A stretch of DNA of 64,000 nt from Neophaeotheca triangularis (taxonomy: Eukaryota), in assembly GCA_054600435.1 (NCBI GenBank), contig BAAIJX010000016.1, positions 310,001 to 374,000 on the forward strand, read 5' to 3'. The translations under genes were made by a program, and so were the position numbers. Shown piece after piece: positions 9,827-12,872 of this stretch. The notes under the pieces were generated by a model. That model did not search any database, was not told the origin of the DNA, and saw only the letters and a list, made by a program, of their open reading frames with translations. Every line of letters starts with the position of its first letter. The stretch's first letter is position 1.

Positions 9827-12614
9827 GATTGCGGACGATGGAAAGTGATCAGATTATGACCGGGGACAGATCTGAATCTAAAATCAACTCAACGAGATAC
9901 CCCCAACCTTAACTACACCCTCAGCATCCCAAAAACTACAAGGATGCAGAAATGACACCTTTGTGTCTTTGACAGCGAGTACGCACATTCCAAGAAAGCG
10001 CTGGAGCTGGGCGCGAAGCCACCTCCGTGCCATTGGTATACCAAGGTCAGCCAAGTGAGCACAAACACCTCCAAACGTTGGCTCAAGAATCAAGAGCAGC
10101 AGCAAACAGTACCTGATGGAAAGCGACACCCGCCGCAAGAGATGTCGTGATCTCACGTATCACGCCCCCCCGGCGATTTACACGCAAACACACCTACGCT
10201 ACACGGTAGGATGGGTAGATTCGAATATCACGGCGCATATGTCGCCATTTGCGGTGTCGATGGCTTTCGAGTCCTTTTCATGCAGTGCTTGATGGACGAG
10301 CCCAATCGGCGGTTGTTTGTCAAAGAAAAGCCACGTGCGTTGCGTCGCTTTTGGTGGATGTTGACATGCTTGGCGCTTCGCACGCAATACCAAGGAGTTG
10401 TTATCGATGAATTTATGCGGCGCCTTTTGCTTGGGTTTAGTTGATGGCTTTTTGTACGACGATAAGGGGAGTGTTTGGATGATTTTAGTTACGTGGGCAA
10501 GTGGGAAGGGTACTGGGAATGGCCATGTCGCCGCCTCTGTTGTATGGCGTGATATGGCTTGGTGTGAGAAGTATGGAGATGAGTGGTACATTGTCGCCAG
10601 CGGTGTATCCTTTGCTTCACGCTATTCTTCCCAAATTGCTTCATCGACTTCATCGTGGGTTAGGTATGGAGGTATCGAGGTTGCTTTTACAAGTACCTTA
10701 TCGACTCGAAGATGGCAGCATTTCCTTAGTCATCGGAGTACGCGAACCTTGCTTCGCATCTCTCTTCACTCGATATTGACAACTTACCCTCAGATGGGTA
10801 TGGGTAAGGCTCGAAACAAGTAGAAGGAGGGGCAACGACGCAACCTGTCTCCCCATATGCTAACGATTCTACCACCGTCTCAGTTGATCAGCCCCGACTC
10901 TCCAACATGGCCACGCTCGCTTGGGCCGTATTCCACTCACTGGACCTTCAAAAACTGTAACCGCTCTAAGGATGCAGCCCTCACGACCGACCAAAGCGGC
11001 AAACCCACTCATCTAGCAGCTCCTGCTGAGGGTCTACACCCCGGCGGCCATAACATGGCGGCGCCGCAAACTTCCCCCGGGCGAGTTTCTCATGGCTGGC
11101 TTCGTTGAAACCCGCAATCTCGCACTCCAGCAGCTATTATGCGGCCTACGACTGGCTAGACCGAGTTATATTTCTACCTGGAGGCTGCAGACGCCGTTTG
11201 AGACATTTATCGTATCGGAGAGCGGTGTAGACAAGGACGTGGCGCGCGGTCAGTGAGTTTTGGGGGACACTTCAAGACAGGTATGTCGATCCCTCTCCTC
11301 CGTCCATTGCTAGACGGGCTAGTATAGTACCCGATAGAGGTCGACTCGACTCGCAGTATTTCTTCTTCCAAGCTGTTTTCCCCCTGGACACATATCTACA
11401 TCACACTCCCTAGCAGTTGACACTCTCTCTCACAACTCGCACTCCGCTCTTGAGACCGGTGAGCAGAGCATCTCAACCCCCAATGCAACCACTTCTACAC
11501 TGCATCCCTGTGTTATCCCATTTCAAACATAGCTTGTTACTTCCCTGCTCCCGACTCTCACTTCGACCTTAGGGTAGGTAGCAGGATATGACATCCCAAA
11601 ACCCGATGCAGGTGCATTTCCGCTGCTTTCCTTTGGCCGGGAGGGCTGCATCGCGGTGACAACGCACTATGCGCTCTTTCCCGACTCCCATTTTGATGTT
11701 GGGAGAGCAGGACATAGCATCCCGTGAGTAAATGCAGATGAGTTTACGTTGCATGTTCTGGTCGGGTAAGCTGCATCGTAGCCAATGCGCCATCTTTTCT
11801 ATCAGTCTTGATAATCTTTCTAGCTTTTATGGTCAATTTTAAACTCATGCCGTGATTGCAGGTTACGATGGTTGTATCCTGCTTTTCTTGGGGTAGGCCG
11901 AATCCGCACTAGCTAGAAGAAAATGCAAGTACGCCTACTGTGTCTCTAGAAGGGACAACCGTATGTCGCGAGATGTGCACGAAAAACTGCTCTCGGGTTC
12001 CTCGTCTCGGGCCTCCTCGACCGTGCTGCCTACGATATTCAGGACATTGTCATTGTCCTCTTTGTGAGCCAAATCAGTCAAATACCAGCTGTTCGCATTG
12101 GGAAGGCACGTCGTTCTTTGTCTTTCCAACGTCACTGCATCGATGCTCTAGCCCTCACAAGTTGGTGTGTGTCTTTTCGTTGGCCTTTCGCTACAACAAG
12201 GTTGCTAGAAGGTTGCTCGGTGACGGGGCTACAATGTCCACAGGTCAAATTGCGTTGAATGGCGCTCAATGGTACTCAATGGGCCGTGATGCCTCAACAT
12301 TTGCTCAAATCCGATGCAAAGAGTATAAGTGAAAACCAGACTCAATTTGCACCCAAAAATTATTCCGAGTAAACTGCTCGACAGAGCAAGCTCTAGAGTA
12401 TCACCTGGTCGTGGCGCACAACCAATGGCTACAAATGACTCTACGAATGTTCAAAACATACCCTTCTTAAGAGGTCTGAATTCAGCTTCTTATGCGGTCA
12501 AAAAAAAATTAAAGTGCAATTTCCTGTATGCCCATATGCTTATGCGTGGTTCTAAGGCCGGGGGTAGCCTCAAAAAGCCCACTTGAAACCCAAAAATCGG
12601 CGAACCAGACAAAT

Positions 12615-12624
12615 AAAAAAAAAA
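12615..12624 (-). terminator. RNA polymerase III terminator (T10) for the tRNA gene
   Basis: First run of 4 or more T on the tRNA sense strand, about 85 nt downstream of the discriminator base. Confidence 0.7.
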
Positions 12625-12630
12625 GATGGA

Positions 12631-12700
12631 TTGCAAGATTGTGGACAATCTCGTAATGGATTTAGACGGTAGTTTGCAAGTCTGTTGACAGACTCGTCAT
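12631..12700 (-). repeat. Two tandem 27-nt hairpin repeats (period 43 nt) in the tRNA 3' trailer
   Basis: Minus strand ATGACGAG-TCTG-TCAA-CAGA-CTTGCAA (12674-12700) and ATTACGAG-ATTG-TCCA-CAAT-CTTGCAA (12631-12657). Confidence 0.8.
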
Positions 12701-12709
12701 ATTCAAGGC

Positions 12710-12872
12710 TGCCTGGACTCAGAATCGAACTGAGATTTGAGGATTACTTGAAGTAATCAGCCTGATGAAGCATGCTCATATATCTAGAATTTAGTTAGCG
12801 ACTGTAGCAGATCAGAGCAGAATTTTGAAGTGACTCACGAGACCTCCGTCCTAACCATTAGACGATCCGGGC
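12710..12872 (-). tRNA. Elongator tRNA-Met(CAT) gene with two introns: spliceosomal-type 12784-12838 (between C34 and A35) and canonical tRNA intron 12745-12780 (37/38)
   Basis: Predicted mature 72-mer GCCCGGATCGTCTAATGGTTAGGACGGAGGTCTCATAATCCTCAAATCTCAGTTCGATTCTGAGTCCAGGCA. It has a D-arm GTCT/GGAC with GG, a T-arm CTCAG-TTCGATT-CTGAG, anticodon stem GAGGT/TCCTC with U31-U39, loop CT-CAT-AA and discriminator A. There is one C4-A69 acceptor mismatch. tRNA fold is high confidence; Met identity depends on the first intron being removed. Confidence 0.85.

Follow-up and report, generated by a model that had tools for sequence, protein, structure and literature searches.

An interrupted CAU tRNA gene with a long, hairpin-bearing 3' trailer in a fungal genome with GT-AG introns in other tRNA genes

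The tRNA gene and its introns

In the window, by which we mean the whole stretch of 64,000 nucleotides that was analysed, positions 12872-12710 of the minus strand form a tRNA gene (Rfam RF00005, 37.8 bits); beyond its end at 12710 comes a trailer with two predicted hairpins (Table 1). At the Rfam gathering score there was no match in the window, and ARAGORN run without its intron option detected no tRNA there. The gene next to the tRNA locus encodes an Lhs1-type Hsp70; its best named relatives, at about 69-70% identity, are proteins from Oleoguttula, Meristemomyces, Vermiconidia and Friedmanniomyces. The host of this 25.4 Mb genome (136 contigs) is what we take to be a Teratosphaeriaceae-like fungus.

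Table 1. Features of the tRNA gene and its trailer. L066 and L068 are two fungal orthologs found in metagenome data.
Feature	Positions	Strand	Basis
tRNA exon 1: tRNA positions 1-34, the last being wobble C34; contains the A box	12839..12872	-	Rfam alignment and alignment with orthologs L066 and L068
55-nt GT-AG intron, splitting the anticodon at 34/35	12784..12838	-	Sequence; in-silico removal gives CAU; splicing predicted
3-nt exon, tRNA positions 35-37, between the two introns	12781..12783	-	Deduced from the uninterrupted anticodon loop of the orthologs
36-nt canonical tRNA intron at 37/38	12745..12780	-	Sequence; boundary from the 7-nt loop and comparison with L068
tRNA exon 3: T-arm (B box), 3' acceptor strand, discriminator A73	12710..12744	-	Rfam alignment, sequence
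Trailer hairpin 1: 8 bp, 4-nt loop	12677..12696	-	Fold prediction
23-nt linker	12654..12676	-	Predicted pairing with own D-arm; not replicated in the orthologs
Trailer hairpin 2: 8 bp, 4-nt loop; short flanks common to the orthologs' second hairpin	12634..12653	-	Fold prediction and alignment
T10 run, first possible Pol III terminator	12615..12624	-	Sequence

Spliceosomal introns are usually confined to mRNAs and a few further RNAs. The consensus of the U2 type comprises a GT start, a branch-point motif, a YAG end and, in this setting, a length usual for fungi. The 55-nt intron has all of these, with a consensus-like 5' site and the branch-point motif at 12799-12794, 9 nt before its end; both orthologs lack an intron of this type at 34/35. 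The 36-nt intron is complementary at its 5' end to the anticodon loop, and ARAGORN placed its boundary differently. This canonical intron may itself be constrained. Its anti-anticodon segment, followed by small hairpins, is kept in both orthologs, and it lies mostly within a contig that is common to both haplotypes of run X2, which are described below.

ARAGORN labels the gene Thr(CGU) with an 80-nt intron. This identity was ruled out, because both orthologs read CAU and the CGU is made by the first bases of the intron. Removing the GT-AG intron in silico restores a CAU anticodon, which is uninterrupted in both orthologs. The resulting tRNA has the CAU anticodon, A37 and A73 of an elongator tRNA-Met, whose hallmark is an unpaired U31-U39. 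It shares these four features with the ordinary elongator Met gene of the same genome (L031), and has a similar D-loop, 4-nt variable loop and T-loop, while all four stem sequences are unlike those of L031. Since the genome contains initiator genes as well as L031, the gene represents a third CAU family. It is far closer to L066 and L068, which come from another fungal family, than to L031, and so is a separate, older paralog.

We considered whether this CAU tRNA could stand in for a missing Ile(UAU), an idea weakened by the presence of an Ile(UAU) candidate, given which the tRNA need not be a reader of AUA. The candidate (L135, G000:C15, about 273896-273990, minus strand) is divergent, and a short GT-AG intron may lie within its 3' acceptor strand. 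A separate Thr(CGU) gene was not found among 56 Rfam matches, 60 B-box loci, 10 of the 18 anticodon-pattern matches and 3 Thr-type 5' ends, searches that were incomplete. Splicing by the endonuclease alone would leave a CGU anticodon and make one gene the source of two decoders, which we consider most improbable.

GT-AG introns in other tRNA genes of the genome

At least 17 other tRNA genes carry introns of the GT-AG type. Seven are supported by automatic intron removal followed by ARAGORN (61 candidate sites at 60 loci), namely Val(AAC) L077, L081 and L098, Leu(AAG) L079 and L095, Ser(GCU) L112, and L092; their isotypes were read manually, the ARAGORN isotype labels being unreliable there. 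The other ten of the 17 were read by eye from printed sequence: initiator Met L058 and L159, Ile(AAU) L054 and L057, Ser L113, L087, L115 and L090, Leu(CAG) L109 and Pro(AGG) L118. One intron of L095 begins with GC. Once their introns are set aside, L054 and L057 match the uninterrupted Ile(AAU) gene L012.

The initiator T-arm motif gave nine matches, two of which are initiator genes. These contain two (L058) and three (L159) introns at differing positions and imply the same mature tRNA. Both initiator tRNA-Met genes that were found, L058 (G000:C12, about 484916-485110, minus) and L159 (G000:C38, 154249-154492, plus), are thus interrupted, and ARAGORN detected neither. The A box of L159 is cut by a 5-nt exon; a B-box-like sequence lies inside the last intron of each gene. 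The T-arm patterns also found three copies of Val(AAC) and two of Leu(AAG), every one of them interrupted, in counts that miss copies with an intron inside the searched motif or absent from the assembly. A search with an A-box pattern was uninformative (263 matches against 263 control matches).

As the genes found for initiator Met (two), Val(AAC) (three) and Leu(AAG) (two) would all need splicing, the spliceosome would be essential for tRNA maturation in this fungus. We infer spliceosomal splicing of these genes from their sequences, and think it very probable that the spliceosome is a routine and essential tRNA maturation enzyme in this fungal lineage.

The search for a B box with a nearby T-run also picked up the snRNA genes of U6 (L116) and U5 (L124). 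The U6 gene has its B box downstream, aligns with positions 1-105 of 105 of its Rfam model over 100 nt, and is apparently without an intron. Two related structured RNAs of about 200 nt (L117, G000:C45:44410-45040, and L108, G000:C25:261000-261640, both minus) end in a T-run with a B box downstream; they have no Rfam match at E 0.05 and are possibly SRP-like. At L082, L094, L105, L114 and L121, inserts of up to about 200 nt separate tRNA-like 5' and 3' ends and a terminator is present in each; these loci, also without an Rfam match at E 0.05, are possibly tRNA-derived non-coding RNAs or elements. Tandem tRNA genes occur at L018, L020 and L042. Among them, Gly(GCC) is followed about 30 nt on by a second tRNA with a hairpin in the spacer, and two Arg(ACG) genes stand head to tail. 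Mitochondrial-type tRNA genes cluster near the start of the 614-kb contig G000:C10 (about 11189-11612 and neighbours, L004 and L036), which reflects either mitochondrial DNA inserted into the nuclear genome or an assembly error.

The trailer and its hairpins

A preliminary description of this DNA had reported a T-run about 85 nt beyond the tRNA end and, in between, two hairpins with nearly identical flanks and two compensatory pairs, and both observations hold. The trailer, 12709-12625 on the minus strand, is 85 nt long and its longest internal T-run is 2. With a common 3-nt tail the hairpins occupy 12696-12674 and 12653-12631, 43 nt apart. Six of the 8 pairs in each are identical, two are altered on both arms, and a G-U pair is present in both. 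The same description held that this pair forms on the tRNA-sense strand alone. On the plus strand the position is indeed unpaired in the hairpin-2 stem, but overall the plus strand folds about as stably (-21.5 against -19.0 kcal/mol for the tRNA-sense strand, z -2.0 against -3.5). The internal repeat (18/23 and 24/33 identical) was equalled by 0 of 400 dinucleotide shuffles, and the folding of the trailer by 0 of 200 shuffles.

To judge how unusual such a trailer is in this genome, we used a list of 56 Rfam tRNA matches obtained from the 63 of 689 candidates that were scored. Setting aside 12 mitochondrial-type matches on contig C114 and 2 on C10, one likely pseudogene and one partial match left 40 other nuclear genes. 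Among these, single genes have 1-38 nt to the first T4 and one tandem pair has 140 nt, so that the 85-nt trailer is more than twice as long as the longest single-gene trailer; with the first T5 as the end point, two single genes come to 65 and 69 nt. A hairpin is nothing exceptional in a trailer of this genome, as 5 of the 18 trailers of at least 18 nt fold better than all but 6 of 200 shuffles. The tRNA-His gene L024 (G000:C20:103511) has a 65-nt trailer with two strong hairpins and a T4 inside the second.

The hairpin motif is unique to the locus: in the whole genome it has 2 exact matches and 2 with two mismatches, the control having 4. A covariance model, which the preliminary description had proposed for finding the motif beside other GT-AG introns, was built from both hairpins and run against 82 sources (168,841 bases). 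It matched both copies, their reverse strands and one further sequence at E 2.9. Neither the other GT-AG-intron tRNA genes nor the trailers of L066 and L068 gave a match. The Rfam scan proposed alongside it likewise gave nothing for the trailer better than E 3.1. A box H/ACA or C/D snoRNA was rejected on this and because the sequence has neither C and D boxes nor the long, pocketed hairpins and terminal ACA box of the H/ACA kind.

Conservation in haplotypes and orthologs

Four random changes in the stems would keep all pairs with p 0.009, and with at least 7 Watson-Crick pairs the value is 0.003-0.004. A single template-switch event can alter both arms of a stem without selection, and template switching could yield the same paired changes in fewer steps. 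A second line of evidence comes from run X2, on which the haplotype comparison relies, runs X3-X5 being without coverage of the tRNA or trailer. Over 12100-12866 it contains two haplotypes; their distances from the window in the far flank are about 2% and 6%, which suggests a hybrid or a mixed strain. The diverged haplotype has 39 substitutions over 12364-12690, 37 of which are listed. Of these, 35 fall in 12394-12625; the two that fall in the trailer (12644 and 12645) are in the loop of hairpin 2. From 12661 to 12785 one contig is common to both haplotypes, with 2 unplaced differences. With two changes placed in the loop and two unplaced, the count for the trailer is 2-4 changes in 84 nt. Within the GT-AG intron, as deduced from a contig bubble, there are no fewer than 11 substitutions and 6 gap letters over 51 nt.

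The trailer has fewer changes than the adjacent flank (Fisher, p 0.0006-0.008) and than the inside of the GT-AG intron (p 0.0004-0.004), less clearly so than 12394-12530 alone (p 0.03-0.15), and shows no significant conservation against the more distant upstream flank (13/231 changed, p 0.19-0.51). The flanks of active tRNA genes are described as normally hypervariable in PMC6130373.

A metagenome search returned 15 matches, of which two are fungal orthologs (L066 and L068, from one metagenome data set by contig name) and the remaining 13 are prokaryote- or phage-like tRNAs; searches of viral and prokaryote genome collections gave no matches. The neighbour gene of L068 is closest to proteins of Pseudocercospora, Lecanosticta and Fulvia, a different family from that of the window host, which makes the L068 host look Mycosphaerellaceae-like against a Teratosphaeriaceae-like window host. 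Both orthologs have trailers without T-runs (99 nt in L068, 84 nt in L066) and with two predicted hairpins each. The L068 trailer folds better than 199-200 of 200 shuffles; that of L066 does not stand out, with 35-56 of 200 shuffles folding as well. In sequence both are unlike the window's trailer except for the short flanks of hairpin 2, the three-way alignment is weak (covariation term -0.11), and the covariance model finds neither.

L068 has no GT-AG intron and keeps the two-hairpin trailer. L066 has a GT-AG intron in the acceptor stem, at position 4/5, which is absent from L068, so that GT-AG introns in tRNA genes are not confined to the genome of the window. All three members seen of the divergent CAU tRNA family have the two-hairpin layout, which goes with this family and predates the GT-AG intron.

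The claim in the preliminary description that RNA structure is under selection in the precursor thus finds modest support in the compensatory pairs, the haplotype constraint relative to the adjacent flank and the ortholog layout, support that does not extend to the comparison with the far flank. We consider selection on structure likely; the trailer is real and probably functional.

Interpretation of the trailer

The reading we put first, tentatively, is that the trailer is a co-transcribed small RNA like RUF70 of Yarrowia lipolytica, released by tRNase Z, an option that the preliminary description had also named. Pol III, directed by the internal A and B boxes, would make one precursor that ends at the T10 run. 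The spliceosome would take out the 55-nt intron and complete the CAU anticodon, and the tRNA splicing endonuclease would then take out the 36-nt intron, in what is a presumed order. tRNase Z, in an established pathway, would cut after A73 and set free an 85-nt RNA consisting of a spacer, a hairpin, a single-stranded linker, a hairpin and a U tail. This RNA would work like RUF70, its stems protecting the ends or binding a protein. The near-identical hairpins would be specific to this lineage, probably through a local duplication of 43 nt and later compensatory change. The length of the trailer, the compensatory pairs, the haplotype constraint, the ortholog layout and the RUF70 precedent favour this reading. 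It is weakened by the p values for the far flank and for 12394-12530 alone, the small number of orthologs (two, from one data set), the failure of the model in the orthologs, the weak alignment, the L066 fold, the frequency of hairpins in other trailers and the possibility of template switching.

Two other readings rank below it, both rather unlikely. In one, the trailer would act in cis as a processing switch: the linker, framed by the hairpins, would pair with the gene's own D-arm and hold the precursor from its cloverleaf until a factor or splicing intervenes. The predicted precursor ensemble has about 14 such pairs with or without introns (the fold with both introns out used an intron one base short). 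The duplex, at -16.9 kcal/mol, is better than with any of 28 other tRNAs here and is equalled by 59 of 2000 dinucleotide shuffles, but 151 of 2991 random genomic 23-mers pair equally well. The orthologs argue against the idea: 217 of 2000 shuffles and 6 of 28 unrelated tRNAs do as well in L068, whose precursor folds without this pairing, and 570 of 2000 and 16 of 28 in L066. In addition, the idea arose after the fact from the precursor fold, and energy models leave out tertiary structure and modifications.

The other takes the trailer for a generic or neutral one, in which a common one-hairpin type was doubled by the 43-nt duplication and the piece is degraded after cleavage. The stems would be kept by template-switch repair or by weak selection against disturbing the folding of the tRNA. 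Significant hairpins in other trailers, a motif confined to this locus and the lack of a sequence-level match to the ortholog trailers all fit. The recurrence of the length and two-hairpin layout in both orthologs does not, nor do the few changes of the trailer between two hypervariable neighbours, nor the persistence of the G-U pair in the two copies, since palindrome repair would be apt to remove such a pair.

Compared with a small RNA of the RUF70 kind, a microRNA-like precursor is very unlikely. It has a precedent in Neurospora milR-4, which PMC3547838 describes as cut by RNase Z from a tRNA-containing Pol III transcript in a filamentous ascomycete, but stems of 8 bp are too short for a duplex of about 20 nt. 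Least likely of all is the suggestion in the preliminary description that a hairpin-bound protein brings the Pol III transcript to the spliceosome, which the joint occurrence of hairpins and a GT-AG intron in the host gene and L066 would suit, and which fails on L068, with hairpins and no such intron, and on the 17 other GT-AG-intron tRNA genes, none of which matches the hairpin model and whose trailers measure 1-25 nt (the B-box search required a nearby T-run, which favours short trailers; for 9 of the 17, the search that found or counted them set no such condition). The hairpins therefore track the tRNA family and not the intron.

Taken jointly, the statement that the spliceosome is routine for tRNAs here, and that a conserved third CAU tRNA would gain its anticodon only after splicing and lead an undescribed 85-nt structured RNA, is one we regard as plausible and hold less firmly than the RUF70-like reading by itself.

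Significance and comparison with known systems

The locus matters less for its trailer than for being a clear case of a tRNA gene with an apparent need for the spliceosome. If real, the spliceosomal introns of essential tRNA genes would couple translation directly to the splicing machinery, provide many natural substrates for studying the splicing of uncapped Pol III transcripts, and open a view on how introns insert into abundant RNAs. The trailer, if RUF70-like, would be a second fungal case, of moderate novelty. Annotation was misled here: ARAGORN calls Thr(CGU) at this gene and misses both initiator genes, so that "missing" tRNAs in such fungi may be hidden. A literature search, judged mostly by title and start of abstract and with subscription journals mostly outside its scope, turned up no description of tRNA genes with spliceosomal or mRNA-type introns; this does not prove novelty. 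According to bioRxiv 10.1101/614032 and PMC10275265, a eukaryotic tRNA gene has at most one intron, which the tRNA endonuclease removes. PMC13451320 describes yeast pre-tRNAs that are capped and have only weak binding to the nuclear cap-binding complex, a possible but unproven route to the spliceosome.

Spliceosomal introns in other non-coding RNAs offer one comparison. In PMC5855946 they are reported from fungal U6, U1, U2 and U5 snRNA and rRNA genes. As in our tRNA genes, canonical 5', branch and 3' sites occur in abundant non-coding RNAs, including a Pol III transcript, at scattered positions and several per gene. The host list in section 14 of that source is without tRNA, whereas here the hosts are tRNAs, in one case with a split anticodon, and some also carry an endonuclease-type intron.

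For the trailer, milR-4 is alike in that, in a filamentous ascomycete, Pol III co-transcribes a small-RNA region with a tRNA and RNase Z sets it free (transcription and release being presumed here); it differs (PMC3547838) in needing a long stem partly cut by Dicer in place of two separate 8-bp stems.

The closest parallel is the tRNA-Trp(CCA)-RUF70 system of Y. lipolytica (PMC2566860). RUF70 was found through its distant terminator and is a stable processed RNA detected by northern blot, while the trailer RNA is predicted from DNA. In both, a structured RNA (a putative one here) of about 70-100 nt lies directly 3' of one tRNA type, with a terminator only at the end of the RNA and presumed release by tRNase Z. 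A dicistronic small RNA of this type would have no terminator within about 50 nt of the tRNA and its first T-run some 70 nt or more downstream; the distance is 85 nt here and 84 and 99 nt in the orthologs. Compensatory base changes, known from RUF70, affect 2 of 8 pairs between the internal repeats here; across the three orthologs covariation is weak, and the model misses the trailers of L066 and L068. The trailer is not RUF70 itself, because the leader, CAU in both orthologs and after intron removal, is not tRNA-Trp(CCA). In Yarrowia the leader is a tRNA-Trp in 13 copies and the first stem adjoins the tRNA; here the leader is a single-copy CAU tRNA and the first stem starts 13 nt after it.
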